Notes: generated by a model not told the origin, from the sequence alone. A DNA stretch of 64,000 nucleotides from Promethearchaeota archaeon (GCA_016840085.1 JAEOTA010000088.1:1-64000); one strand, 5' to 3'. Counted from the first letter of the stretch, positions 6,200 to 34,299 are shown. Numbers and translations: made by a program.

Positions 6200-7087
6200 T
6201 TATTCGTATAAAATAGTACCGTATGAAAATTTCTCATCTAAAGGAATTGAAGCACAATAAAAACCAGAATCAAGAAATTTGAATAAGTCAACAATGTGGG
6301 AAAAATTCTCATACACATAATCAACAAATTGTTCAAAGTAAGTATAAAATCTACCATAAGGAATCGTATAATTTATGAATTCTTTATAATTTAAGTGAAG
6401 TATTACAAATCTAACAAATTGTAATCTAAGATTTTCAGATAAACTTTCACACACTTCGAAGAGATAGTTATTTCCATACTTCAAATCAATAAATAAAATT
6501 AAATCTATTAAATTTTTAATTATTTTATAATTATCTAGAGAAGATTCTAACGAATCTCGGAGTTGAAGTAAGATATTATCTATTAATTTAGAACCTGATT
6601 GATCAAACACATATTTTAATTCTTCTATAGTAAATGAATTCAAATATCCATTATAAAGGAAAAATTGAGCTGTATTTATATAGCCACTTTCAAATCTTTT
6701 TACGATTTCTTCCTTGAATACTCTTAATGCTAAAAGATCGCCTGCTTCAGTTAGTTTTTTAAGTAATGGAAATGCCAGTTTATTATGGAGAATCCGAGTA
6801 TCATATTCATTTTCAACCCAAACTTGTAAATTTGAACAATGACCAATAAATTCTTCTTCGGGAGTGAGTGTTTTTCTAATTAAAGGATCCAGTTCCATTG
6901 AACTGTCAAGTATTTCAGCTGCTTGATCAATAGAATCTATTTTTTCAGTTATTCCAATATCATCTTTAGAGATATTTAGTAATAAATATTTACACTGTGT
7001 AAATAATACGTTGTTTACATATATCGATGTATGCCCATTTTCTAATTTAAGTTCAAGATAATCATTTAGGGTATATTTTTGCATCAA
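6200..7087 (-). CDS. Lokiarchaeia-type conserved protein (domain often found N-terminal to LRRs)
   Basis: LKLE..T.IYV...F.QCKYLLLNI and EEEF.GHCSNLQVWVENEYDTRILH..LAFPLLKKL pattern, recalled as an expanded Loki family. Confidence 0.55.
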   Translation of the reverse strand: MMQKYTLNDYLELKLENGHTSIYVNNVLFTQCKYLLLNISKDDIGITEKIDSIDQAAEILDSSMELDPLIRKTLTPEEEFIGHCSNLQVWVENEYDTRILHNKLAFPLLKKLTEAGDLLALRVFKEEIVKRFESGYINTAQFFLYNGYLNSFTIEELKYVFDQSGSKLIDNILLQLRDSLESSLDNYKIIKNLIDLILFIDLKYGNNYLFEVCESLSENLRLQFVRFVILHLNYKEFINYTIPYGRFYTYFEQFVDYVYENFSHIVDLFKFLDSGFYCASIPLDEKFSYGTILYE

Positions 7088-7642: not shown

Positions 7643-8227
7643 TTATTTTCCACGGCCTTTATTTGCTCTAATACTTGGCCTAGTTTTTTCGGATCCCCAA
7701 CCTTTTTTATGTAAACCTCGAGCTCTCTTTCCAGCGGAAGTTAAACCTCGAGTAACTCTTTTTGATTGTTGTACTTCTGTAATCCAATTTATTTTAGGAT
7801 CAGATTTGATTACTGGGTGGTTTGGATCTACTAAAATAACTTCATAATACCAATGCTTACCATCTGAGTAAATTTTATAACTATTCAAAACTTGCATATT
7901 TGGATATCTTCGTTGTACTCTTTCCTCAGTAATCCATTGAAGATTTTTCCCTGTAGTATATTTAGAAACACCCATTGCTCTTGGCTTTCTACCTCGTTTT
8001 GGGCGAGTTTTATGCATACCACCTTTTCTAATTCTCACTCTCACAATAATATATCCTTGTTTGGCTTTATAACCTAAAGTTCTTGCTCGATGAATATTAG
8101 TGGGTTTTTCAACTCTTTGGATAGATTTTCCTTTTCGATATTCTATACCACGCTGCCAATGAGGTGTTTGATATCCTTTTTCATGTTTTTCAAAGGTTTC
8201 TTTTACATAATTATATCCAGACTTCAA
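7643..8227 (-). CDS. rpl15e: 50S ribosomal protein L15e
   Basis: RARTLGYKAKQG, VLNSY, YEVILVDP.HP.I..D..INWI, RGLTSAG. Confidence 0.96.
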   Translation of the reverse strand: MKSGYNYVKETFEKHEKGYQTPHWQRGIEYRKGKSIQRVEKPTNIHRARTLGYKAKQGYIIVRVRIRKGGMHKTRPKRGRKPRAMGVSKYTTGKNLQWITEERVQRRYPNMQVLNSYKIYSDGKHWYYEVILVDPNHPVIKSDPKINWITEVQQSKRVTRGLTSAGKRARGLHKKGWGSEKTRPSIRANKGRGK

Positions 8228-8427
8228 TTTAACGATGCACTCTTGTTTTTTATTATCTTTTAAAATATATAGAAATTAATTAATTTTATTATTTCTAATT
8301 TAACTTAAAATTTATTCAACTATTGAGGTCTTTAATTTCTTCATTTTACTTGTTTAGAAATAATTTTAATAGCTCAAATAAATTATAACTATTAATTATA
8401 GCTTAAAGTTTTTATTTTTAGGGAGAA

Positions 8428-8919
8428 TTGCGGTACCTCATGGAAGAAAATAATAAAAAAAAGGATGATTTTAAAAAAGCGAATATTGAGGAAAAAGATG
8501 GTATAAAAATATCCTATGATAAGAATGAATTAAAAGAAACATTCCCTCATTTAGTTAAAGAAATCTCTAGAAATCAAAAATCACTTAAAATTGATTCTGT
8601 TAGAATGGAAATTGAGAATACAAATGATCAAAATTCTCAAACTTCAGATAACTTTTCCCCTAATGAAATAATTAATCCTAGAGCAATTGATTTTATTAGA
8701 AGATGCACAAAAACTGAAGAGGCCATCGAAATATTAAATTTTTTATTAAAAAGAAAAGAATTAACTCGTTCTGATTATATATCATTGAAAAATCAAATAT
8801 TACAAGAAAATGGATTAAGAAATTTAGTTAATAAACATGGAGGATTTAAAAGATCTGGATATTATGAAAGAAAATTTGGAACTTTGAGAATTAAAAAAAG
8901 TGATAATGAAAAGAACTAA
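8428..8919 (+). CDS. DUF2095-like archaeal protein
   Basis: FPHLVKEI and P.AIDFIRRC.K.EEAIEILNFLLKR.E..GYYE motifs. Confidence 0.65.
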   Translation: MRYLMEENNKKKDDFKKANIEEKDGIKISYDKNELKETFPHLVKEISRNQKSLKIDSVRMEIENTNDQNSQTSDNFSPNEIINPRAIDFIRRCTKTEEAIEILNFLLKRKELTRSDYISLKNQILQENGLRNLVNKHGGFKRSGYYERKFGTLRIKKSDNEKN

Positions 8920-8974
8920 CTAATAGTTAAATTTATTCATAAAACAAAAATAATCAAAAAAATTATAATATTAT

Positions 8975-9056
8975 GAGAAGAAATATGATGAGCTTATGAC
9001 AAACCGAACTAATGCTCTTAGTGATGATACTTGTCGCCCCAATCTGATTTTTTCTC
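8975..9056 (+). ncRNA. Box C/D sRNA (2'-O-methylation guide)
   Basis: C box ATGATGA 8985-8991, D' CCGA 9004-9007, C' GTGATGA 9021-9027, D CTGA 9044-9047, terminal stem GAGAAGAAA/TTTTTTCTC; intergenic. Confidence 0.8.
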
Positions 9057-9088
9057 TTTATTATCACTAAACTGTTCTCCAAAATTCT

Positions 9089-9346
9089 TTATGAAATACT
9101 TGTTTCTAATTTTTTTTTAAAATTACTCCCTTTTGCAGTTAGGAAATGTTCTTGTTTAACTATTTTAATAAGTTGTAAATCAAGTAAAACAGGTACCCTT
9201 CCTCTAATACATTCGATTGGTAATCCTGAAAATAATTTGATAGTTTCAAAAGTTTTTGCTCCTTTGTCAATTGCAAACAATATTTCAATTCCCATAAATC
9301 CTAAGAGATTCTTTAAATCTTCCTTCGTTTCTTCTCCATTAAACAT
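9089..9346 (-). CDS. Small winged-helix protein
   Basis: 85 aa with wHTH-like pattern ending LTAKG. Confidence 0.55.
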   Translation of the reverse strand: MFNGEETKEDLKNLLGFMGIEILFAIDKGAKTFETIKLFSGLPIECIRGRVPVLLDLQLIKIVKQEHFLTAKGSNFKKKLETSIS

Positions 9347-9435
9347 AGTATGTCGGAAATTTCAACTTATTCAAAATTATAATTTTAAATTTTGGTTGAA
9401 TAGGTGGTGATTCATTTTCTCAGAAATTTTTGATT

Positions 9436-17800: not shown

Positions 17801-19351
17801 TTAAATAGTATGATCGATGAAAAGAAAAATCTGATTATTAATACTGAAAATAGTATTAAAAAAATTCAAGAAGACCAGAATTCTTTGCAAAATGAAATTG
17901 ATACTTACACTTTAAAAAAAGAAAAATTCTGGGAGATAACAGAATATATCCAGAAGCAAATTGAAGATAAAAATAGAGAATTAGAAGATACTATGGATCG
18001 TCTTAGGGCACTGGAAAATGTAATGAGAATAATCAATTCAATTGAAGATATTCAAAAGGAGAATGCAGATGCCAATAATAATATTGAAAAATGTTTGAAA
18101 GATATAGAGGTTTTTAACTCTCAGGTCGATGAAATTCAAAAAAGCGTTGATCAAAAGCAAGAAATAATAGATTCTCTTAGAAATGAAAAAACTAAAGAAT
18201 TAGAATCACAAAAAAAAGCGCAAAAGAAATTAAACAAACTGAATAAAGATTTACAGAAACAACAAGGAAATTTAAATGAGTTAAATAAGAATAAAGAAAG
18301 AGAACAGAAAATTATAGAATTAGGTGAAGAGATAAAAGACACAGAAAAACAAGTAGAATCTATATTGAAAGAATTAGAGAATTTAAAAGAAGAATTAGAT
18401 ACTGAAAATGAGAAAAAGGATACCAAACAAAAAGAAATTGATAAGTTTATTCAAGAAAAAGATGAATCGTGGAAAAAACAAAAGCAATGTCAAAAGATTA
18501 TTACAGATTTAAAATCAGATCTTTCAATGGAAAATTCTAAAAAGAATAACTTTGAATCTAAAAAAATTATATGTGCAGATCAAATAGAAACTTTATTTCA
18601 ACGATCAAAAGAATTTGGCTCATTACCAAGAGTAACTGAAGATCTTTCAGAACCAGGATTACAATCTGAAATATTAGAAGCAACCAAAAAGAAGAAAACT
18701 CTCGAACCTGTGAATTTAAAAGCTATTGAACAATATGATGCAGTAAAAGAAAGATTTGATGAAATTGATATGCGTAGACAAACAATACAGAGAGAACGAA
18801 AATCAATTTTAGATGCAATAGATAAAATAGAACTTGAAAAAACGAGAACATTCATGAAAGCATATCATGAGATTAACAGAGAATTTAGTAGGATTTTTCA
18901 AAAGCTCAGCCCTGGTGGTTCGGCTAAAATGATTTTAGATCGTCCTGATAAACCTTTTGAGGGAGGGATTAGTATTGAAGCTAGACCTCGTGGTAAAAAA
19001 ATATCAAGTTTAGAGATATTAAGTGGAGGAGAGAAGACTTTAGTTGCCTTATCTTTTATTTTTGCAGTTCAAGAATTTTACCCAGCACCTTTTTACGTTT
19101 TAGATGAGATCGATGCAGCCCTCGATGCTCCCAATGTCCATAGAGTCTCCATGTTGCTGAAGGAATTTGCCATACAAGCACAATTCTTGGTTATAAGTCA
19201 TAGGGAGGAAAATATTGTAAATGCGGATAGGATATACGGAGTATCCATGCAACAGTCGGGTATAACAGATATATTTAGTGTTGATTTGGAGGAGGAAGCA
19301 AAACGTATTTTAGAACTTGAGGATATCGAGCCCACCATTACGGAGAATTAA
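14897..19351 (+). CDS. smc: Chromosome segregation SMC ATPase (long, non-canonical hinge)
   Basis: GFKSF, GPNGAGKSN, VLQG, LSGGEK, LDEIDAALD, ISH; long coiled coils; scpA/scpB downstream. Confidence 0.93.
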   Translation: MTYIKKISMTGFKSFGDRTVTIKLSSGFTCIVGPNGAGKSNIIDALCFALGRLSKKTMRAKSLEDLIFAGSRGKNPSQRASVTMYFDNSENVFPGGTESFEITRVIKRGGGGGYKMNGKKSTRQQILNALAAANIDPDGSNQFVLQGKIVELTHMNAEDRRKFIEELIGLQKYDEMKDVTLKELEKAERDLGQFEAIFNEVSSQLKKVEKEKNDALAWKELDDHINFLNSQLIALKISKLRQEEDELEKKIDNSLKIIEELEEKIVRQEDLLKQESLVMDNIQVTINEKEKEREEITEKITQLKTKISSSQTTLNLANKSIEKLTQEIKNLENLQMELEEGQSIDFLIEKASNEISENENLIEESKKEIEKRQQTQAELETKIKDTDEEKSQFKTEISSVKQNISSNKAQIKVLRENIIKNEDKKTKLENELNKLKRDAESIDDAIEDARKTEKEIRKQIDNLKVKVSEENQNRKDLENKINTLQEERNILNANLGNLQSSLSSLNTEINMNNSNIQDLNKKKNSIEKKIQELSKGKDTEQVVKELLKENEDINKTLTGLRAKLKEENSIYKKNEQNLELWKMKKYSIESEINDNKGKIDNINTELKIFTKELTKLEREKNNLDSQVNTLNKSLSDIEKDIEKFSLKKENIRRRLEELKKEKENLLKKIESSEEEYEKNTEDITGILQILNMLTQNINISVESIKGNIQQSNAEAIEVSAEDFKKFILDIVDIMKTIETLGSDTEQTAEMSEMLSSIMETLSLFTDNADSTINQLIEKVKESADVEVQASTATFDSFVQDLMEILENVYLSLRKLTMSKSQELYKQLEEISDTISAQTDDFNDVEKKYTENNVQNQHSTENLSIFNRRLEEINKRIQELNTRAVKSEEENNERDANINERQKEIENLDADIKKLVELKDTYWDNISQIQDDIEKKQIELEALREKLQELHGIQNLFENITDIDENIQKLNSMIDEKKNLIINTENSIKKIQEDQNSLQNEIDTYTLKKEKFWEITEYIQKQIEDKNRELEDTMDRLRALENVMRIINSIEDIQKENADANNNIEKCLKDIEVFNSQVDEIQKSVDQKQEIIDSLRNEKTKELESQKKAQKKLNKLNKDLQKQQGNLNELNKNKEREQKIIELGEEIKDTEKQVESILKELENLKEELDTENEKKDTKQKEIDKFIQEKDESWKKQKQCQKIITDLKSDLSMENSKKNNFESKKIICADQIETLFQRSKEFGSLPRVTEDLSEPGLQSEILEATKKKKTLEPVNLKAIEQYDAVKERFDEIDMRRQTIQRERKSILDAIDKIELEKTRTFMKAYHEINREFSRIFQKLSPGGSAKMILDRPDKPFEGGISIEARPRGKKISSLEILSGGEKTLVALSFIFAVQEFYPAPFYVLDEIDAALDAPNVHRVSMLLKEFAIQAQFLVISHREENIVNADRIYGVSMQQSGITDIFSVDLEEEAKRILELEDIEPTITEN
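19130..19351 (+). repeat. Recoded smc 3' copy (left repeat)
   Basis: 35 of 66 identical-residue codons differ synonymously from 28401-28622. Confidence 0.9.
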
Positions 19352-19367
19352 TAAAAATGAGTTGAAT

Positions 19368-21452
19368 TTATTTTTTACAAGTGTTACACCAACTTCCTTG
19401 GTATACAGCTGCCGGGGTGGTTTCCCACACATGATTATTTTTACATTTTATTTTTATAGGTTTAAACCGTCCTTTATATGGTGTTATTAGCTGACCTCCT
19501 TTCTTACTGACAAAGATTTGAAATTTTTCAGCATATATATCCATTTTACATTTTGGACACAATATCTCAATTTTTTTATAACTTTTTTTAAGCCAATACG
19601 GTGATTTTTTAAATTTATGTCTTTTTGAACATCTATACCATAATGGTGTTTTAGCATTTATATATTCACTAATTAATTTACAACCAAATTTCTTCCCAAT
19701 CTTTCGAAAATATTCCGTTGTTCCTTTCATATTTCTAGCACACTCAGGACACCAATTATCCTGATATACAGAGTTTGGGGTAGTTTTCCACTGGTGTCCC
19801 TTCTCACACATAAGCGTTACTTCTTTTCTTGCCGAAAAATAGGGAGTCATTAGACTTCCACCTTTCTTTTCGACATATGCTCTAAATTTTTTAGCATATT
19901 TATTTTCATATATAATAAATTCTCTATAATCGTATTTGGGGATATTTTTCAGCATTTTTCCCGTTTTTCTTTCATATTCTTGTTCAATATATTTTTGCAT
20001 TTTGGTGTAGGGAAGAAGTTCATCATCGGGAATTTGAATGAGGATCACCCCATTTTTCTCGCATAATTTTAATTTAAGAGCATCTTCTTTCTGTATGTCT
20101 TTTAACTCGTCATCAGTTTTGTTAAAAGCTTTTTTACGGTGTTGAATTCCTTGATATTCAAATGCTAATCCTAAATCTTTATTATATCCGTCGAGTTCCA
20201 TTTGATTTCCCTTCTCATTAATTAGCCATTCGGGATAACTTTTTGGAAAAGGCCTTTTAAAAACCTTTTCAAAGAATTTTCGACAAATTGTCTCACTAAT
20301 GTATATGTTACAGTGTGGACACCAAGAATTAGTATAAACAACACTATTGTAAGTAGTAATAAAATGATGTCCCTCGGCACATTCAAGGTGTAGTTTCGAT
20401 TTAGCATTTTTCAAGGTTTTACTATGACATTTTCCACCTTTCTTTGCTGCAATTTTCCTTATGGTGTCTAATGAGACATGTGTCTGCGTTCGGATATATT
20501 GTTGGTATTCATTATCGGTTAATATCCTTTTTAATTGATTACGAGCAGAAGTATCGCTTAATAAGAGCCATTTTTGAATGTCGTATGCATTGTATTTTCC
20601 TGGATTTTCTAAAATGATAGACTTAACAACTTTATTTACGCAATCAGTATCTCTAATTTTTGTTGTTAAAGAAACAAAATTCGAAATTAATTTTATCTGG
20701 TTTTTAATAGCTTTGGTTTTTTCATCTTTAGACAGACTTAATAATTGTATTTGTTTTTCCTTTAAAAAGTGTATAAATGTTTTGGTCGGGCGGAAGTTTT
20801 TTAACCAATTACCAGAGCGATTGAATTCTTCAACAAGTTGCTTTATTAACGTGCTTCTATGTATGTAATATAAAAAAGTTTCAAAAAGTTCATAATCATA
20901 CCCCCATTTCATGTACTTTTCTATATAATTTTTAAAATCTTCTCCGAATATTGAAACTAAATCTTTTGTTGGAAGTTTGCTTAAGGTGAATAGAAGCGTA
21001 GCCTTATCTTCATCACTAGGCTTTTGTTTTTGAATGATTTTTAGTAATATTGATTTTTCTTTTAAGGTCAAGGTTGTATTTTTATATAAATTCTCCTTTA
21101 AAATCTCCTTTAAATTTTGAAAATCGGGATTATTTTGATTTATAATTTGTTGTAAAGCGTTTCTTTTTTTTATTTCAACCAATAGATGAGTTAATTTTTT
21201 TGCGACTCGTTTTCCTTCAGGAATTAAACTTTTTTCATAGTTTCTACTTTTATATTCCTTATAAATTGCTAGTGAACTTTTTAATTCGTTAAAAAAATCA
21301 TCAAATCTTGGATTATGTTCTTTTAATTGTTTAATTAAAAGCTTATTATTATTGGTAAACTGATGAATTAAACATTGTAGTTCTTCTTTAATTTCTTTAG
21401 AGATCTCTTGGTCTGTTGACTCCTCAATATGATTTTTCAAAAATATTGCCAT
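19368..21452 (-). CDS. Zn-ribbon repeat protein with restriction-endonuclease-like (Vsr/DUF559-type) domain
   Basis: Four C..(G)H......CxxC modules; ELDGYN..L.LAFEYQGIQH...D..K..LC..NGV.LI.IP nuclease signature. Confidence 0.75.
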   Translation of the reverse strand: MAIFLKNHIEESTDQEISKEIKEELQCLIHQFTNNNKLLIKQLKEHNPRFDDFFNELKSSLAIYKEYKSRNYEKSLIPEGKRVAKKLTHLLVEIKKRNALQQIINQNNPDFQNLKEILKENLYKNTTLTLKEKSILLKIIQKQKPSDEDKATLLFTLSKLPTKDLVSIFGEDFKNYIEKYMKWGYDYELFETFLYYIHRSTLIKQLVEEFNRSGNWLKNFRPTKTFIHFLKEKQIQLLSLSKDEKTKAIKNQIKLISNFVSLTTKIRDTDCVNKVVKSIILENPGKYNAYDIQKWLLLSDTSARNQLKRILTDNEYQQYIRTQTHVSLDTIRKIAAKKGGKCHSKTLKNAKSKLHLECAEGHHFITTYNSVVYTNSWCPHCNIYISETICRKFFEKVFKRPFPKSYPEWLINEKGNQMELDGYNKDLGLAFEYQGIQHRKKAFNKTDDELKDIQKEDALKLKLCEKNGVILIQIPDDELLPYTKMQKYIEQEYERKTGKMLKNIPKYDYREFIIYENKYAKKFRAYVEKKGGSLMTPYFSARKEVTLMCEKGHQWKTTPNSVYQDNWCPECARNMKGTTEYFRKIGKKFGCKLISEYINAKTPLWYRCSKRHKFKKSPYWLKKSYKKIEILCPKCKMDIYAEKFQIFVSKKGGQLITPYKGRFKPIKIKCKNNHVWETTPAAVYQGSWCNTCKK

Positions 21453-21459
21453 TTTAAGT

Positions 21460-21477
21460 CAAATAAATTTTTATTTG
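21460..21477. promoter_or_regulatory. Inverted repeat (possible operator) in short divergent intergenic gap
   Basis: CAAATAAA-TT-TTTATTTG between divergent starts at 21452 and 21531; AT-rich, so weak. Confidence 0.3.
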
Positions 21478-21530
21478 TCAAAACTATTTAATACGAAAGG
21501 ATAAAATTAAAGAGATAAACCTAGTAGAAA

Positions 21531-22328
21531 ATGTATTTAATTTATATAGATGAGTCTGGATCATCTACATATAAAGAAATGAATGTTGATTATACGCTTG
21601 CTTCAGTAATAATAGAAGAAAGCAATTGGCAAGCTATTAAGAATGAAATTGATCGTATTAGAATTTTATTTTTTCCAAATTTGGATCCAGATGATATAGA
21701 AATTCACACAAAAGAAATATTCCATAAACAGAATATATTTTGGTCTTTAAAGAATGATAAGAATTTTGATTTTCTAAGAGAATTGTATACAGCAATATCA
21801 AATATGGACTTAACGATAAATGCTATTCATATATTTAAGAAAAATTTAAAGAATAAACAAGATACTCACTCTTATCCAAGAAATTTCACTCCTGAAGAAA
21901 TAGCTTGGACCTTTTTAAATAATAGAGTTTCAAAATATTTAGATAAAATTATGCAAAAAAGAAAAACTGAAGGTAAACCTGCTACTTTTGGTCTTTATTT
22001 AATCGATAGAATTAATAAAAAATATGATCATAAAAGAAAGAAAAGAATTATCAAATATTTCACAACTTCTAAAATAAAAATTGGATTTTTCAAGCCTGTT
22101 TCTCCTTACATGTTGAATGATCCCGTTTTTGTAGATTCAAGTTTTCATATTTTAATACAGATTGCTGATTTAATTGCTTTTGTAATTCATCGAAAACATA
22201 ATTCAAACAATAATAGTAAGATAGATACCTATGTGGAAGAATTTTATAATTTAATAATTCCAAAATTTGATAATGATTCTTTAGATCCTTCAACATACTT
22301 AAATTATGGATTGAAATTGTATCCTTAA
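21531..22328 (+). CDS. DUF3800 family protein (RNase H-like)
   Basis: YIDESG N-terminus, EIH, FVDS....IQIADLIA C-terminus. Confidence 0.85.
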   Translation: MYLIYIDESGSSTYKEMNVDYTLASVIIEESNWQAIKNEIDRIRILFFPNLDPDDIEIHTKEIFHKQNIFWSLKNDKNFDFLRELYTAISNMDLTINAIHIFKKNLKNKQDTHSYPRNFTPEEIAWTFLNNRVSKYLDKIMQKRKTEGKPATFGLYLIDRINKKYDHKRKKRIIKYFTTSKIKIGFFKPVSPYMLNDPVFVDSSFHILIQIADLIAFVIHRKHNSNNNSKIDTYVEEFYNLIIPKFDNDSLDPSTYLNYGLKLYP

Positions 22329-22334
22329 TAAGAA

Positions 22335-22405
22335 GAGGTGAAGGTGAGTGGTGATAAACACCACGATCCCTCCACATTGATGGTGATAAACACCATCAAA
22401 ACTCA
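22335..22405 (+). ncRNA. Candidate DUF3800-associated structured RNA (twin hairpins)
   Basis: GTGGTG-ATAAA-CACCAC (22348-22364) and TTGATGGTG-ATAAA-CACCATCAA (22377-22399); GC-rich patch just after the DUF3800 stop. Confidence 0.6.
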
Positions 22406-22944
22406 TTTAATATATGGATATACATATTTATAAATTTAATCTCACAAACAAATTAGTAATTTCTTTAATTTGTATCTTTTTAATTCTAAGTCTCATGTCT
22501 TAAATATATATTTCAGAATTAAATTTTATTTTATCTTTCTACAATTTTTATCAATAAAAGGATAAAAATGTAAAGATTTTTTTTAAAGCAAAATATAATT
22601 TTTAATCAAATATCTTTTCAGAATATCAAAAATGCCGACGGAAAATTCAACCAGTTTTTAATACCATTAATAAAAAGTTAAGAAATGATTTCAATCATAT
22701 TATAAATTGAAAGTTTTTACAACCTTTATAAGCAATAATAATTTTCATGAAATTTTAACTGTAACTTCTTGAAATTTTTTAGGCATTGATGTTTTTTTTT
22801 ACAATACTAATTTGTAGATGTAGTAATAAGTCAAAAACTACTATAGAAAATTCATAGAGGATTGAGTTATAAATCAATTTATTTAGCTGGGTCTCTTAAT
22901 TTATAATAAATGTAATAGATGTAGATTATTAGTGGGTAGTTAAT

Positions 22945-23832
22945 TTGATAGAATTTAATAGAAATACGTTAGCAATAGTTATTTCAGATATACATATTGG
23001 GAATGAATCTTCCAGAATTCAAGAATTTGCAGAATTTCTTGACATTATCCTACAAAATGTAATCAATAGAAAATTACCCTTTCTTAGAACTCTAATTATC
23101 CTAGGGGACTTCTTTGACCTTCTAGCAACTAGTTTTGAAGATCTATGTTTCAATGAAAAATATTTCCAGATTTATAATGAATTAGATCAAATTAAAAATC
23201 AAAAGATAAAAGTTATCTTTGCATTAGGTAATCATGAGATTTCTACCAGTTTGTTTTACAATCTTCAATTTAAAGGGCGGAAGAAAAGCTTTTTGAGGAA
23301 ATTTGATTACTACTCATTTCCTTTCGATTTTCTCACACTAAATACAATATGTCAATATGTTATTTTAATGAATGATGATGATGATATTTATTTGGGTTTA
23401 TTGGATTCTATTCATGATGAGCCATTTATATGGCTTCATTTAGCAAAAGGATCATTTCTAAATAATGAAACTTATTTTATGTGTCATGGATACCAATTTG
23501 AGGATAAAGATACTCATCATTCGGTTACAGGTTGGTGGGATTATGCGAGAAATTTAACTGAGGGATGGAAGAAAATTATAACATCTACATGGGCAAATAT
23601 TAAAACATTATTACAACAAAGAGATACTTCAAGATTTTATGACAATATAAGTACCAGTTTAGAAAATGCTGATAACCCATATTCCCATATTATATTTGGG
23701 CATACTCATAAGTGTGAAATAAAAGATTCAAAAATATTAAATACAGGTTGCTAGCTTAAAGATTCAAATCCCAGTCATCTTGAAATTTCAATTGATGGTA
23801 GTTGTAAGTTATATGAAATAAATTTTTTATAA
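22945..23832 (+). pseudogene. Calcineurin-like metallophosphoesterase (LpxH-like) with in-frame TAG
   Basis: SDIHIG, LGDFFD, GNHE, HG, FGHTH, NTGC*; TAG at 23752-23754 sits where NTGxW Trp is expected; frame continues 25 codons to TAA 23832. Confidence 0.7.
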
Positions 23833-24046
23833 TTTTTACAATTTTTCTACCTCATTATTCTCTAATAAAAATGTATCCAAATTATCAACTTCAAAAATTC
23901 CAGAATTATTTTTTATTAAAATGTGCTCTTGAGGATTTTTGATATACTATTTTAATATTAAAGTTTTAGTATTCATGTCTTATTAAAAATTAGGGATTAT
24001 CAAGACAACCTCAGAATTAAATAAAATAGAAACATACTTTTATTTA

Positions 24047-24472
24047 ATGAAAGAAGCAGAATTAGTTGATAATTATATTATATTTAGAAAAAAGTCAGAA
24101 CCAAATATTATCATAATAAAAGAGAGAGGTTATCGACAAAAAAAAATTGATCTTATTGAAATAAACTTAAAAACAAATTTAAACTTCCATGGGGTAGAAT
24201 TCAAAATTAAGAATTGGAAACTTGGTCTAAAGCAATGTCTAGGCAATCGAATATTGGTTCCCTATAATTCTTTAGCAATATATTATAAATATGAAAAAAA
24301 TATACACATAGAAGAATTCTCCAAACATGGAATTGGTCTAATCATTATAAGTGATGATGGTTTTAGACAAAAAATACTTCCAAAAAAAAATGATCTATTA
24401 AACTATTACAAATATCATTGTATTTATGAAAAAATAAGAAACATCTTTCCAGAAACTTTAATAAATTGCTAA
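24047..24472 (+). CDS. Small PD-(D/E)XK nuclease-like protein
   Basis: MKEAEL, KIDLI, GVEFK..NWK.GL.Q, GIGLI pattern. Confidence 0.6.
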   Translation: MKEAELVDNYIIFRKKSEPNIIIIKERGYRQKKIDLIEINLKTNLNFHGVEFKIKNWKLGLKQCLGNRILVPYNSLAIYYKYEKNIHIEEFSKHGIGLIIISDDGFRQKILPKKNDLLNYYKYHCIYEKIRNIFPETLINC

Positions 24473-24530
24473 ACTCCCTATTTTTAAGATTAAAAAAAAA
24501 AAAATACTAAATAAAAACATTATTTTAAAG

Positions 24531-25874
24531 ATGGATATTTTTTATAGATTAAACTCACCAAAAGATTTAGCAGATTTGAACGATAGCTTTTCTCAAAGCC
24601 TGTGTAAAGGATTTTACTTCTTTTTAGATGATATTAAATTGCAAAACGACAAAGCAATTCCTAGTAAAAAAAATCTAACTTATCTCAAAACAGTAAAATC
24701 TCTTAAGAGAGATATAATCCTAACTTTTGATTTTAATAAAAAGTTTAGTAGACCTGATTACCATTCTCCAAGATTAAATATAAAAACAACCAAACGATTA
24801 GAAGATAGATTACAGAGAGGCTTTTCTACTAGAAGAGATGTTGAAGAAGAAAAAGAATTTTTCAATTCTATTTTAAGGAAAAACCAAGAAAAAATAGGAG
24901 AGCTAAAAAAACTTGAAAATAAAAAATATTGTATAACAATTTTTAAAGAAATTCTTGATTATTATAAGAAAGTTAAAAAATATTTAGAAGAAGAAGTAGG
25001 TTTAATGCGATTTATTCCTCACATTAGGAAGACAAATGTTATTGGGTATGAAGTACCTTTAATTGCAAATTATAAAATTGAAGAATTAAATGATCCATAT
25101 TTTCAGGTTATTCAAAATTCAATTTTTAAAATAAACAATCATCTTGTAAATTTATGCAGAAAGAGTAGTCTAGATGATTTTATATATCCATTAACAGTAA
25201 TGACTGAAGATTTACAAACGAAAAATCAATTCTTAAATACCCAAATGAACTATCTAAAGGATTTTAAAAGATTATTGATATGGGTAATTGATTCAAATGA
25301 ATTGTATAGTACCAGAAAAAATAAACAGCTATATTTTGATATTGTTCGCGAATTAAGTAAAGACCATCATATATTTATCAAGTATGTTGGAGTAAAACAG
25401 CTCCAAAAATATAAAAAAGAATTTAATGAAGCATCAATTATTTTTCGTGAAGACGCCTATTCGGGTTATAATATTAACATTCAGAGATCTGCTAAGCCAA
25501 AAAGAACTAGAAACATATTAGATCCAAAAGACATAAAACATAAGGATGATAGAGGTCTCTCGAAGGGAAATGTAAATGCCCATTTTGAATGTAGTTGTAC
25601 TATCTGTAATGCTTTTGGAATTGATACTTATAAAAAGGCGATAGATTTTTATCATGGATCTAGGATTGCTAAAGAACCCGAATTTGCTAAGGAAATTTCC
25701 CCAAAACGAGAAGTAAAAGACGAAAAAAAGTATAGACTAGAAAAAACTAAAAAACTCCAAACAAAATTTAGAAAAATACATAACTTCGAAGTAGCGGATA
25801 ATTTAATTTTTATTAAACTAAACGAATTTATAAAAAAATATCCTAAAATAGCAAATCAAATTGGGTTGAGGTGA
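24531..25874 (+). CDS. Hypothetical protein with TGT-like C-terminal zinc site
   Basis: CSCTIC followed by IHN, as in tRNA-guanine transglycosylase/DpdA zinc motif; rest unrecognised. Confidence 0.45.
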   Translation: MDIFYRLNSPKDLADLNDSFSQSLCKGFYFFLDDIKLQNDKAIPSKKNLTYLKTVKSLKRDIILTFDFNKKFSRPDYHSPRLNIKTTKRLEDRLQRGFSTRRDVEEEKEFFNSILRKNQEKIGELKKLENKKYCITIFKEILDYYKKVKKYLEEEVGLMRFIPHIRKTNVIGYEVPLIANYKIEELNDPYFQVIQNSIFKINNHLVNLCRKSSLDDFIYPLTVMTEDLQTKNQFLNTQMNYLKDFKRLLIWVIDSNELYSTRKNKQLYFDIVRELSKDHHIFIKYVGVKQLQKYKKEFNEASIIFREDAYSGYNINIQRSAKPKRTRNILDPKDIKHKDDRGLSKGNVNAHFECSCTICNAFGIDTYKKAIDFYHGSRIAKEPEFAKEISPKREVKDEKKYRLEKTKKLQTKFRKIHNFEVADNLIFIKLNEFIKKYPKIANQIGLR

Positions 25875-25877
25875 AAA

Positions 25878-27032
25878 ATGAAAAATAGAATAAATAAATT
25901 TAATGAAATAATTGAAAATGAAGAATTAGTTCTCTTGATTTTATTTTATTCAGAAAGATATTACACATTAAAGACACGCTTAGTAAAATTGTTATTTCTT
26001 TTTAAAGAAATTTTTCCGATAAACGAAGAAAATGAATTAGATTTAGATTTTTTCCCTTATAATTATGGAGCTACACTTGATTATGATGAGTATCAGTTAT
26101 TAATTAGTACATTAAAGAACTATGAATTCATTGAAGTGGAAGAACAGATATTAAAGAAATATAATAATCCATTAATTAAAATTAAAATTCACGAAGAAAA
26201 AGAAGAAGAAATAATATATATGATTAAAGAAAAGCTTATACCAGAAAAACCAATATATAAAATCGAATTAATTGAAAAAATATGTAAAACCTTCCCTAAT
26301 TTTGATAATAAAGCATTACTTCAATTTGTTTATTATATTAGAGAGGATTTTACTGAAAAAAGCAAAATAAAGGAAGAAATATTTAATTTATCTAAAACAC
26401 AAATACAAGAAAAGACTATAAATCTCTTTAAAGAGCTTCGAATACGATATTTAGATATTTTTCTTGAATACTTAGAAGGAATCTTGAAAATATTTAATAT
26501 AAGTAAAACTATAGCAGATTATCAAATCTTTAAAGAACTTTTCGCAAATTTCCATATAGGCCTAAAAACTAATTCTCTTAAAATTAATAAAAATATCATT
26601 CAAAACTTAGATCAAATGTCCTTAAAAGATAAGAAACATCATAGACTGAAATTATCACTTTTAGACATATTCCTAAAAAATCAAGGTAAGGATTGGGATA
26701 ATGAAGCTATAATTTCTATTATAATATACATATTAAAATCCTTAAGTCTTAGTTGGCCTTTAGAAAAGCCCTTAGATCGAGAGATTTTTATCTCACTAAC
26801 TTCAAAATTACTTCAAAATTATAAATCTTTTTACAAACCGGAAGATACTTTCTCAGTATTAGAAAAAACCATACCTACAGAAGAAGAAATTCAAAAATTT
26901 ATTTTAAAATATGAAAATGACTTAACTGATAGTGAGGAAAAAGAAGAAGATACTGTAAAAGATGAATTTGGTCAAGACTTTACAGAAGACGACGAATATG
27001 AGGATGATATAATTAAAAAGTCAAATTCTTAA
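25878..27032 (+). CDS. Panacea/DUF4065-like (SocA-like) wHTH protein with acidic tail
   Basis: KTRLVKLLFL...FFPYNYGA and LLQFVY motifs; GAGGTGA RBS overlaps the previous stop. Confidence 0.55.
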   Translation: MKNRINKFNEIIENEELVLLILFYSERYYTLKTRLVKLLFLFKEIFPINEENELDLDFFPYNYGATLDYDEYQLLISTLKNYEFIEVEEQILKKYNNPLIKIKIHEEKEEEIIYMIKEKLIPEKPIYKIELIEKICKTFPNFDNKALLQFVYYIREDFTEKSKIKEEIFNLSKTQIQEKTINLFKELRIRYLDIFLEYLEGILKIFNISKTIADYQIFKELFANFHIGLKTNSLKINKNIIQNLDQMSLKDKKHHRLKLSLLDIFLKNQGKDWDNEAIISIIIYILKSLSLSWPLEKPLDREIFISLTSKLLQNYKSFYKPEDTFSVLEKTIPTEEEIQKFILKYENDLTDSEEKEEDTVKDEFGQDFTEDDEYEDDIIKKSNS

Positions 27033-27039
27033 GCTTAAT

Positions 27040-27939
27040 GTGGAGAATAATAACTTGGATTTGGTATTAGATTCATCAGCATTAATAAATCTCTTTTTTG
27101 GAAGTACTAAGACTTCTAAAAATATCCAGAAAATTATTTCATATTATGAAAATATTTGTATTACTAATATAGTTCGGTATGAATTTCGAAACTACTTTTT
27201 AGATTTCTTCCGTTTCCTAGAAATCTATAAATCAATAATAAAAGATTTCCAAGAAAATAAAATTATTATACATAAAATCTTTCCTGACTTATTAGAAGAA
27301 CTTTCTCGAATATATCACCGAAAATCACAGCGTTTTGGTAGGATAAGAATAATCTATGAAGGAGTACTAGAAAAATATCAAAAAAGGATCTTAGAAACCA
27401 TGATTAAAGGTTTACAAAATTGTGAAGATATAAAGCAAATTCTAATAGACCGGTTAAAAACTGTAATCTGGGACTATCAGATAAAATTAAAAATTGTTTA
27501 TGAAACTCTTACAAATTATATTGTAATAAAAGACTTTGATTGTAGTTTATGTAATTGGAAATACTTTTATGATGCAAATATAGATGAATTTATTATAAAT
27601 GAAAAAAGAGTATGTTCAAGGATTTGTTTCAATATTAAGGAAAAGTTATCATATTTCGCTAATGAAAATCAAACTTTTATTGACTTAATTTTGGAAAATT
27701 ATATTAAATTAAGTAAAGAAAGAAAAATAATGAATTATGATAAAAATCTTATTCCATCTTTGCAAAAAATTATAAATAATAAAAATGCACATATTGGAGT
27801 TAAAGATTGTAAAAGCTTAGGTGACTTTTTTATTTCATCAATTGTAGATGATAATCGGCACATTTTAACTAATAATAAAAACCATTTTTTATTATTATTA
27901 CTTTGTAAAAATAGAGAGAATTCTTTGATCTTATTCTAA
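27040..27939 (+). CDS. PIN-domain protein
   Basis: LVLDSSALI, VRYEF, LGDFFI, ILTNNKNHF PIN motifs with large insertion. Confidence 0.65.
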   Translation: MENNNLDLVLDSSALINLFFGSTKTSKNIQKIISYYENICITNIVRYEFRNYFLDFFRFLEIYKSIIKDFQENKIIIHKIFPDLLEELSRIYHRKSQRFGRIRIIYEGVLEKYQKRILETMIKGLQNCEDIKQILIDRLKTVIWDYQIKLKIVYETLTNYIVIKDFDCSLCNWKYFYDANIDEFIINEKRVCSRICFNIKEKLSYFANENQTFIDLILENYIKLSKERKIMNYDKNLIPSLQKIINNKNAHIGVKDCKSLGDFFISSIVDDNRHILTNNKNHFLLLLLCKNRENSLILF

Positions 27940-28391
27940 TAAAAAAAAGATTACTGAATCTTAAATATATTAATTAAAATTATTTCTTCATACTATATTA
28001 ATTCATTTTCTACTTTCTTGCAGAATTTGAAGGTAGATTTACAAACATAATTTAAAGATCCTAAATAAAATCTATTCAATTTTTCATTTTTCTGTTTTAA
28101 TTATGAGAATATTCACTAAATTAGATTTATAAAAGTGAGGAAATCAAGTATTTCCAAGTAATTATCCATCTTAAGTAATATAGTGAATTTAGTAAAAATT
28201 AGAATATATTTAATCCAATATAAATATCAAAAAAATACAATAAATTATATAGATTTTCACTTAGTTTAACTCTCTAGTATGGATTATTAATATTTTTTAG
28301 GATGAAATCCTATCATCATATTATAGCTAAATAAAATAAAAGAATAAAGTATAATTTATCATAGATAATAATTTTATTTAAACAAATCAAT

Positions 28392-28622
28392 ATGAGTAGC
28401 CCAAATGTTCATCGTGTAAGTACAGTAATACAAGATTTTGCTTCACAGGCTCAATTCCTCGTAATAAGCCATAGAGAAGAAAATATCGTAAATGCAGACC
28501 GCATATACGGAGTTTCCATGCAACAAAGTGGAATAACTGACATTTTTAGTGTTGATTTAGAGGAAGAGGCTAAACGTCTCTTAGAGCTTGAAGATATTGA
28601 GCCTACTATTACAGAAAATTAA
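28392..28622 (+). pseudogene. Orphaned smc 3' end (76-aa ORF)
   Basis: PNVHRVS...ISHREE...EDIEPTITEN duplicates the SMC C-terminus; directly upstream of scpA. Confidence 0.85.
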
Positions 28623-34166: not shown

Positions 34167-34299
34167 TGGACCTGACGGGAATTGAACCCGTGACCTCTTG
34201 AATACGCGAATCTCTCTAAATGATGTGGATTTTGCGAATCAAGCTTAGGATTAATTTATATAATTATAAATTAATGATCTTCCACTGATCTACAGGCCC
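34167..34299 (-). tRNA. tRNA-Ala(CGC) with two introns (25/26 and 37/38)
   Basis: Spliced: GGGCCTGTAGATCAGTGGAAGATC|GCTTGATTCGCA|TTCAAGAGGTCACGGGTTCAATTCCCGTCAGGTCCA (72 nt, G3:U70); introns 34245-34275 and 34203-34232 form relaxed BHB motifs. Confidence 0.9.

Follow-up and report, generated by a model that had tools for sequence, protein, structure and literature searches.

The window analysed here is a stretch of 64,000 nucleotides (nt) from a Promethearchaeota archaeon (GCA_016840085.1 JAEOTA010000088.1:1-64000). It has a GC content of ~27% and is of archaeal type, its genes including smc-scpB and one for a class I aminoacyl-tRNA synthetase. At positions 24047-27939 it carries the subject of this analysis, a cassette of four intact open reading frames (ORFs) on the + strand, whose predicted products are a small nuclease, a zinc protein resembling tRNA-guanine transglycosylases (TGTs), a Panacea-like protein and a PIN-domain protein (Table 1). 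The ORF listing gave intergenic gaps of 58 bp (ORF1/ORF2), 3 bp (ORF2/ORF3) and 7 bp (ORF3/ORF4), which agrees exactly with the four co-oriented genes described in the original prediction, made from the sequence alone. Genes for the nuclease, the TGT-fold protein and the Panacea protein were found together in ~25 loci (in 16 of 400 Asgard genomes and on an Arthrobacter plasmid). In comparisons with three other copies the ratio of nonsynonymous to synonymous substitution rates (dN/dS) was 0.09-0.30 for all four genes i.e. each is under purifying selection, and they are therefore genuine genes rather than chance ORFs of AT-rich DNA. Upstream of ORF1, the box ATTAAATAAAAT is unchanged in six cassettes whose remaining upstream DNA could not be aligned. 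It is probably the archaeal TATA/BRE (transcription factor B recognition element) promoter of a single leaderless or near-leaderless four-gene transcript.

Table 1. Features of the cassette and of the island that carries it (positions in the window; aa, amino acids).
Feature	Position	Strand	Description
ATTAAATAAAAT box	24016..24027	+	12-nt AT box, 19 nt 5' of the ORF1 ATG
ORF1	24047..24472	+	141 aa; predicted small PD-(D/E)XK (restriction-endonuclease-fold) nuclease, catalytic motif intact
ORF2	24531..25874	+	447 aa; predicted TGT-superfamily-like (beta/alpha)8 barrel, C-terminal Zn subdomain
ORF3	25878..27032	+	384 aa; predicted N-terminal Panacea (PanA/SocA-like) domain ~1-170, helical C-terminal domain, acidic tail
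ORF4	27040..27939	+	299 aa, GTG start; predicted PIN-domain nuclease-like protein, ~200-aa insertion with four conserved Cys
Island	19352..28433		~9.3-kb insertion into smc, at its 3' end

The AlphaFold2 (AF2) model of ORF1 (predicted local distance difference test (pLDDT) 91) has an alpha-beta-beta-beta-alpha-beta core, formed by a helix at 3-17, strands at 21-29, 32-40 and 47-53, a second helix at 57-67 and a fourth strand at 73-79. Strand 2 carries D35, and E51-x-K53 is part of strand 3. A profile search returned 81 clusters of ORF1 relatives, and D35, E51, K53, W57, Q63 and G97 were invariant in the 65 relatives compared. Restriction-endonuclease-fold proteins dominate the Foldseek list for the model, with 3dnx first (E 4e-6, template-modelling (TM) score 0.68), followed by AF2093, EndoMS, SfsA, XisH, PaqCI, BamHI and Hjc. 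ORF1 itself has no Pfam match; REase_MTES_1575 is matched by 15 of the 65 relatives, and others match SfsA, NERD, HSDR_N_2, Mrr_cat_2, PDDEXK_9 or Hjc. As judged from the predicted fold and the conserved residues, ORF1 is a PD-(D/E)XK nuclease with an intact active-site motif, and the small nuclease of the original prediction is thus borne out.

The ORF2 model (pLDDT 86.8, predicted TM score 0.86) consists of eight strand-helix units, a three-helix insertion of ~75 residues (80-153) after strand 3 and a C-terminal subdomain. In an exhaustive structure search (VIA, 48,161 chains) the first four ranks were taken by an archaeal TGT (ArcTGT; 1iq8_A, Z 16.4), a bacterial TGT (3unt_A, 15.6), QTRT2, which is a non-catalytic subunit (6fv5_A, 14.5), and DpdA (7ui4_A, 13.8), with alignments of 285-305 residues at a root-mean-square deviation of 4.1-4.9. 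Other barrels reached a Z score of at most 12.8, with the immune protein Cap10 twelfth (12.1). A TIM nuclease of the TatD or Endo IV type was considered for ORF2 and set aside, since neither was among the top structural matches. The only invariant residues in a 30-sequence ORF2 alignment that covers both of the cassette types described below are P176, W251, C354, C356, C359 and H417. Four of these form the predicted Zn site i.e. the CxCxxC motif (C354, C356 and C359) and H417, which is in the last long helix (398-426). ORF2 thus resembles TGTs and DpdA (PF01702; 7UI4, 1IQ8, 3UNT) in its barrel, in an insertion between beta8 and alpha8 that carries a beta-hairpin and the CxCxxC motif, and in the His of its terminal helix, which is where the Zn-binding His of DpdA sits (PMC10164549). 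It differs from them in the spacing between Cys and His (57 residues versus ~22) and in the insertion after strand 3. The TGT-like character of ORF2 and its CxCxxC...H signature, both of which had been proposed, were therefore upheld.

The catalytic residues tell a different story. TGTs and DpdA share three invariant active-site Asp i.e. a general acid after strand 3, a base-recognition residue after strand 4 and a nucleophile after strand 8 (PMC10164549), whereas the barrel of the ORF2 family has no invariant acid. When the active site was mapped by predicted strands, as opposed to residue-level superposition, the position after strand 3 was D or N and those after strands 4 and 8 were variable; the best-conserved acids, D254 (83%) and E257 (80%), are at the end of strand 6. 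Using hhalign, the ORF2 family and 30 Asgard ArcTGTs aligned with the CxCxxC knuckle in register (E 5.6e-4, 21 columns), nothing aligned beyond the knuckle and the global mode returned nothing, so the catalytic residues cannot be mapped by sequence. ORF2 has no match to the Pfam TGT model (PF01702) at E<=1 and no Pfam or NCBIfam family above cut-off; across the host genome PF01702 found a true ArcTGT and an ArcS-like gene and neither of the two ORF2 copies present there. No deazaguanine synthesis genes (QueC/D/E) and no DpdB/DpdC-like genes were seen in or beside the cassettes examined. From its model and its alignment, ORF2 has a TGT-superfamily fold with a predicted zinc site, lacks the conserved catalytic Asp triad and is probably not a transglycosylase. 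Because the catalytic Asp of TGTs and DpdA are not conserved, base exchange by ORF2 is unlikely and binding or sensing is likelier. The TGT aspartates looked for in the original prediction are thus missing as a conserved set, and of its proposal that base exchange or sensing of modified DNA is coupled to a nuclease, the exchange part is not supported.

The ORF2 family is rare. Profile searching of 1.84 billion representative proteins yielded 21 matches, the nearest database relative being labelled Candidatus Hodarchaeales, and a search of a 5.8-billion-protein set with the 30-sequence alignment found no further relatives. A related-loci search with a closer ORF2 alignment returned two already known genomes and nothing in viral contigs, and 50,697 phage records searched by tblastn with two ORF2 forms contained no match. 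In the ESM Atlas, the best shape match was a 455-aa actinobacterial cluster (TM 0.64), in line with the ORF2-like protein of the actinobacterial plasmid described below; the viral clusters returned by a feature search were labelled ERCC4 and weak (0.84, short of the useful range), and they were set aside.

The Panacea assignment of ORF3 was reached in steps. A hidden Markov model (HMM) built from the long ORF3 forms alone detects short stand-alone homologues of 167-222 aa (E 1e-8 to 1e-15), which are encoded beside distant ORF2 homologues. One of these, in L068, matches SocA_Panacea at 33.6 bits (cut-off 25.7), and those of L052, L018, L073 and L077 score 18-25 bits, below the cut-off. This chain, from the long-form HMM to the short forms and from these to SocA_Panacea, indicates that the N-terminal ~170 residues of ORF3 are a diverged Panacea domain, so that the Panacea-like protein with an acidic tail that had been proposed stands by transitive homology. 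The rest of the protein (residues 171-384, a helical domain followed by the acidic tail) matches no Pfam family.

ORF4 was proposed to be a PIN RNase-like protein with extra Cys, and the family supports this. The PIN model is matched by seven of ten family members (best E 1.1e-5), and E48, D262, T277, N279, C168, C192, C196 and C257 are invariant. The acidic set comprises D11 (D/E), E48 and D262, with N279 at the fourth position; the D11 position is D or E in all copies, if two homologues with short gene calls are extended into their upstream frames. In these two the first PIN strand lies in frame 5' of the first ATG/GTG/TTG (L008:5831-5914 (-), IPDTS; L050:4843-4923 (+), IIETS), which points to a non-canonical start codon or else to a miscalled start. 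By its sequence, ORF4 is predicted to be an enlarged PIN nuclease-like protein with a four-Cys insertion.

We modeled the complex of ORF3 and ORF4 in three runs, with three controls, each protein being folded with its own 10-row alignment. The ipSAE values were 0.63, 0.73 and 0.71 (median 0.71), and all controls gave 0.00. Of 80 solved complexes 58 attain this mark, as against 2 of 110 mismatched pairs, which is a rough yardstick here because our own alignments were used. Contact agreement between the runs was at least 54% and partner pLDDT at least 78. The confident contacts link ORF3 245-313 with ORF4 113-182 i.e. they join the C-terminal domain of ORF3, and not its Panacea domain, to the insertion in the PIN domain. 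Binding of ORF4 by ORF3 is thus supported by the models. Multidomain PanAs are known to neutralise toxins via added domains, with Panacea proposed as a sensor (PMC10440598), and an ORF3 C-terminal domain that holds ORF4 would follow the pattern that Ernits et al. established by experiment for these proteins.

For linkage we counted 25 loci of the ORF2 family, all fully read and drawn from Asgard genomes and metagenomes. In 23 of them the ORF2-family gene has a Panacea-like gene next to it, the exceptions being L071 and L066 (the link of the L066 protein to Panacea is transitive only, through 24% BLAST identity to the L072 homologue). An ORF1-like gene adjoins it in all but two loci, and a gene for a PIN, transmembrane or SIR2 protein lies next to the Panacea gene in 22. 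The start and stop codons of cassette genes often overlap. More than ten other loci with unrelated flanks have these four genes again, with order and sizes unchanged, so the recurrence elsewhere that the original prediction called for is found. The distribution is patchy, with ORF2-family genes in 16 of 400 Asgard genomes and nine of 85 genera.

The cassettes fall into two types. In type A the order is ORF1, ORF2, long Panacea protein and large PIN protein (the window, L006-L010, L013, L015, L016, L050, L065 and L074; partial in L067, where no PIN-like fourth gene was detected, and in L066 and L072, where no ORF1 was found). In type B a short Panacea gene and a variable gene precede ORF1 and ORF2; in four loci the variable gene is for a minimal PIN_3 domain (48.6 bits), and in another four its product has two or three predicted transmembrane helices. 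The 230-aa protein of L018 was considered as a PIN homologue, and this was dropped because it has two transmembrane helices instead. A further arrangement is seen at L052 (short Panacea, ORF1, ORF2 and SIR2_2), which lies beside AAA_21/RloB and HipBA and whose SIR2 protein resembles defence SIR2 models. The conserved core is thus the nuclease, the TGT-fold protein and Panacea, and the fourth gene is exchangeable among a large PIN protein, a minimal PIN_3 protein, a protein with two or three transmembrane helices and SIR2_2.

The cassette is also present in a bacterium. Plasmid pSI-1 of Arthrobacter sp. AK-1 (61% GC; NC_010494.1 61825-64653) carries a type B set as four overlapping 'hypothetical' genes beside a relaxase gene, which encode a Panacea-like protein of 184 aa, a protein of 200 aa with three transmembrane helices, an ORF1-like protein of 148 aa and an ORF2-like protein of 409 aa; this plasmid cassette (L080) is the sole match among 72,556 plasmids. 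Flanking genes differ at every locus and include those for an integrase and an McrB-like ATPase, and for a type IIG restriction-modification enzyme. At L050 the type A cassette follows a phage-type integrase gene, and downstream of it are a second short Panacea-like gene (186 aa, 6523-7083) and a gene for an McrB-like AAA_5 ATPase (7645-9351). The host genome contains a second complete four-gene copy on another contig (C44:35112-39009; L006 5112-9009, - strand). The two host copies share 55-69% protein identity, which suggests two diverged specificities rather than a recent duplication.

In the window the cassette is part of an island (Table 1) bounded by a direct repeat (19163-19351 and 28434-28622, 79% nt identity). 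The displaced smc tail persists at 28392-28622, with 87% protein identity to SMC 1409-1484. The island brings its own version of the last ~63-76 smc codons, and since this replacement tail is supplied, SMC stays intact; the old tail remains as a 76-aa ORF ahead of scpA/scpB, with ScpB encoded downstream of the island. Three further genes occupy the rest of the island (19368-23754), none of them conserved beside other copies of the cassette. One, which converges on smc, is for a 694-aa protein containing a treble-clef Zn finger (DUF4379), and the other two are for a DUF3800 protein and a calcineurin-like phosphoesterase. Elsewhere in the window there is a tRNA gene of 133 nt (34167-34299, -) with an Rfam match of 44.6 bits (71-position model), which ARAGORN misses; its length implies at least one intron, in keeping with an archaeal host.

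Comparison with known systems located the parts of the cassette within familiar superfamilies. Searches of the four window proteins against Pfam, NCBIfam and PADLOC gave a sub-threshold PIN match only, and PDB sequences searched with profiles of the four families yielded nothing meaningful. No ORF2-like protein matches any PADLOC model, and two ORF1-like proteins match unrelated PADLOC models weakly (E 7e-4 and 9e-3). The short Panacea-like proteins of type B match component A of the PADLOC candidate PDC-M19 (E 1e-10 to 1e-11), a model that ORF3 of the window does not match. In full-text literature searches no paper was found that connects a TGT-like protein to Panacea. The original prediction did not recognise the combination as a named system, and it matches none here.

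Among the closest known systems are the PanAT systems, where a Panacea protein lies beside interchangeable toxins, including PIN and membrane proteins (PMC8832971, PMC10440598), and where the toxin can be bound through an extra domain (PAD1, Phd-C and ZBD in PMC10440598), as is also predicted here. Unlike PanAT, the pair here travels almost always with a PD-(D/E)XK nuclease and a TGT-fold Zn protein, and ORF3, itself below Pfam detection, has a predicted partner-binding C-terminal domain and an acidic tail that match no Pfam family. ORF4 recalls VapBC in having a predicted PIN domain with a D/E/D set that is encoded right after a predicted neutraliser, but its PIN domain is split by a ~200-residue Cys-bearing insertion, which is the predicted docking site, and the neutraliser is Panacea-based rather than a VapB-type DNA-binding antitoxin. 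The Dpd system differs in its partners, as no DpdB/DpdC or DpdD-K proteins and no ParB-like/helicase sets were found in the window or in more than 20 loci. In Cap10 of type IV CBASS (cyclic-oligonucleotide-based antiphage signalling system), a TGT fold has been remodelled to bind a partner protein within an immune system (bioRxiv 10.1101/2025.04.06.647259). Cap10 and QTRT2 (Z scores as above) provide examples of TGT folds that function with no base exchange on nucleic acid; type IV CBASS differs in that no QueC-like Cap9 and no CD-NTase are present in the cassette or the listed neighbourhoods, and there is no detectable sequence similarity. All of the parts belong to superfamilies already known, and the cassette follows the logic of established modular systems; within it, the TGT fold is represented by a new, catalytically remodelled branch.

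Computation supplied the folds, the motifs, the linkage, the swapping of effectors and the predicted ORF3-ORF4 interface. Taking the sequences and the models together, we think it probable, with some reserve, that the four genes form one integrated, horizontally mobile conflict cassette of immune or abortive-infection type, built on a Panacea toxin-antitoxin core. The immune or abortive-infection character is suggested by the exchangeable effector (RNase-like, membrane or NADase), the patchy mobile distribution and the defence-type neighbours. In such a cassette ORF3 would be a multidomain PanA-like protein, whose C-terminal domain would clamp the insertion domain of ORF4 and so hold the toxin inactive. 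ORF1 and ORF2 would be a conserved companion pair for the recognition, and perhaps the cleavage, of nucleic acid that is invading or aberrant; this pair would pass the event to the Panacea domain, which would then release the effector. The order of these events, like the ligand of ORF2 and the role in defence, is what we infer. The toxin-antitoxin abortive module of the original prediction gains from the predicted ORF3-ORF4 binding and from the effector swapping, but its placement as a second, backup layer fits less well than one integrated system, since the nuclease/TGT-fold pair occurs with Panacea in 23 of the 25 loci and on the plasmid.

Several observations weigh against this integrated cassette. 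ORF3 and the other long forms have no Pfam match, including to SocA_Panacea (PF13274), so their link to Panacea is the transitive one described above. The Pfam PIN score of ORF4 is 18.9 bits, below the cut-off of 23.6. Foldseek of ORF2 against the PDB returned generic TIM barrels alone, at E>1e-3, and the TGT assignment depends on one predicted model with a Z margin of ~3.6 over generic TIM barrels. The ORF2-like protein of pSI-1 is without the Cys knuckle, and no ORF1 was detectable in L066 and L072. Toxin-antitoxin modules on mobile islands can serve maintenance of the element and not defence, and we know of no phage or virus of this host.

An alternative is that two independent systems happen to be neighbours i.e. 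ORF1 and ORF2 form a nuclease pair, restriction-like or dependent on modification, with the TGT-fold protein reading a base and the nuclease cutting, and ORF3 and ORF4 are an ordinary PanA-PIN pair, which is close to the two-layer picture of the original prediction. Panacea-toxin pairs are indeed widespread on their own (PMC8832971), relatives of ORF1 also occur without ORF2, e.g. beside an N6/N4 methyltransferase gene in L051, and the gap is 58 bp between ORF1 and ORF2 and 3 bp between ORF2 and ORF3. We nevertheless regard two systems as unlikely, because the ORF1/ORF2 pair is almost never without an adjacent Panacea gene, in both gene orders, across Asgard families and on an actinobacterial plasmid i.e. 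in both domains of life, and stop/start overlaps often run through all four genes; independent systems are not normally so tightly linked through rearrangement and cross-domain transfer.

It is distinctly unlikely that the cassette serves the mobile island and the plasmid as an addiction or stabilisation module, acting by post-segregational killing and with no antiviral role. The location of the island in smc, the integrase beside the L050 cassette and the relaxase gene that adjoins the cassette on a mobilizable plasmid would all fit such a module, as would the PIN domain, PIN toxin-antitoxin pairs being classical stabilisers of replicons, but a SIR2 effector, defence-island-type neighbours and effector swapping are hallmarks of immunity modules, and a simple addiction module needs no conserved nuclease and TGT-fold protein. 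We consider it very improbable that ORF2 is an active DpdA-like base-exchange enzyme that places deazaguanine or another base in host DNA or RNA as a self mark, with ORF1 restricting unmarked DNA: the fold, the Zn site and the Asp or Asn at the end of strand 3 (the site of the general acid in TGTs) resemble those of TGT and DpdA, and the genuine ArcTGT and ArcS-like gene indicate that the host makes preQ0-pathway substrates, but the missing invariant acids, the silent Pfam TGT model and the lack of QueC/D/E, DpdB or DpdC-like genes in or beside any cassette seen all argue against exchange.

Returning to a single integrated cassette, a more specific form of it is possible, and we put it forward tentatively: the nuclease and the remodelled TGT-fold protein may be a dedicated nucleic-acid-sensing input to the Panacea domain, within a new cross-domain defence system (Asgard archaea and Actinomycetota) with swappable PIN, membrane and SIR2 effectors. 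What Panacea antitoxins sense is a published open question (PMC10440598), and a nuclease and a base-pocket protein linked to a Panacea domain are a concrete upstream candidate; if the sensing-input reading is true, this would be the first concrete trigger pathway for the hypothesis that Panacea is a sensor. The PanAT survey left out neighbourhoods suggesting operons of more than three genes, which may explain why the cassette was missed (PMC8832971). After DpdA (DNA modification) and Cap10 (protein deazaguanylation), ORF2 would be the third case of a TGT fold put to use in conflict systems, here without the catalytic triad. The module is also common to Asgard archaea and bacteria, and it therefore bears on the movement of immune genes between the domains of life.

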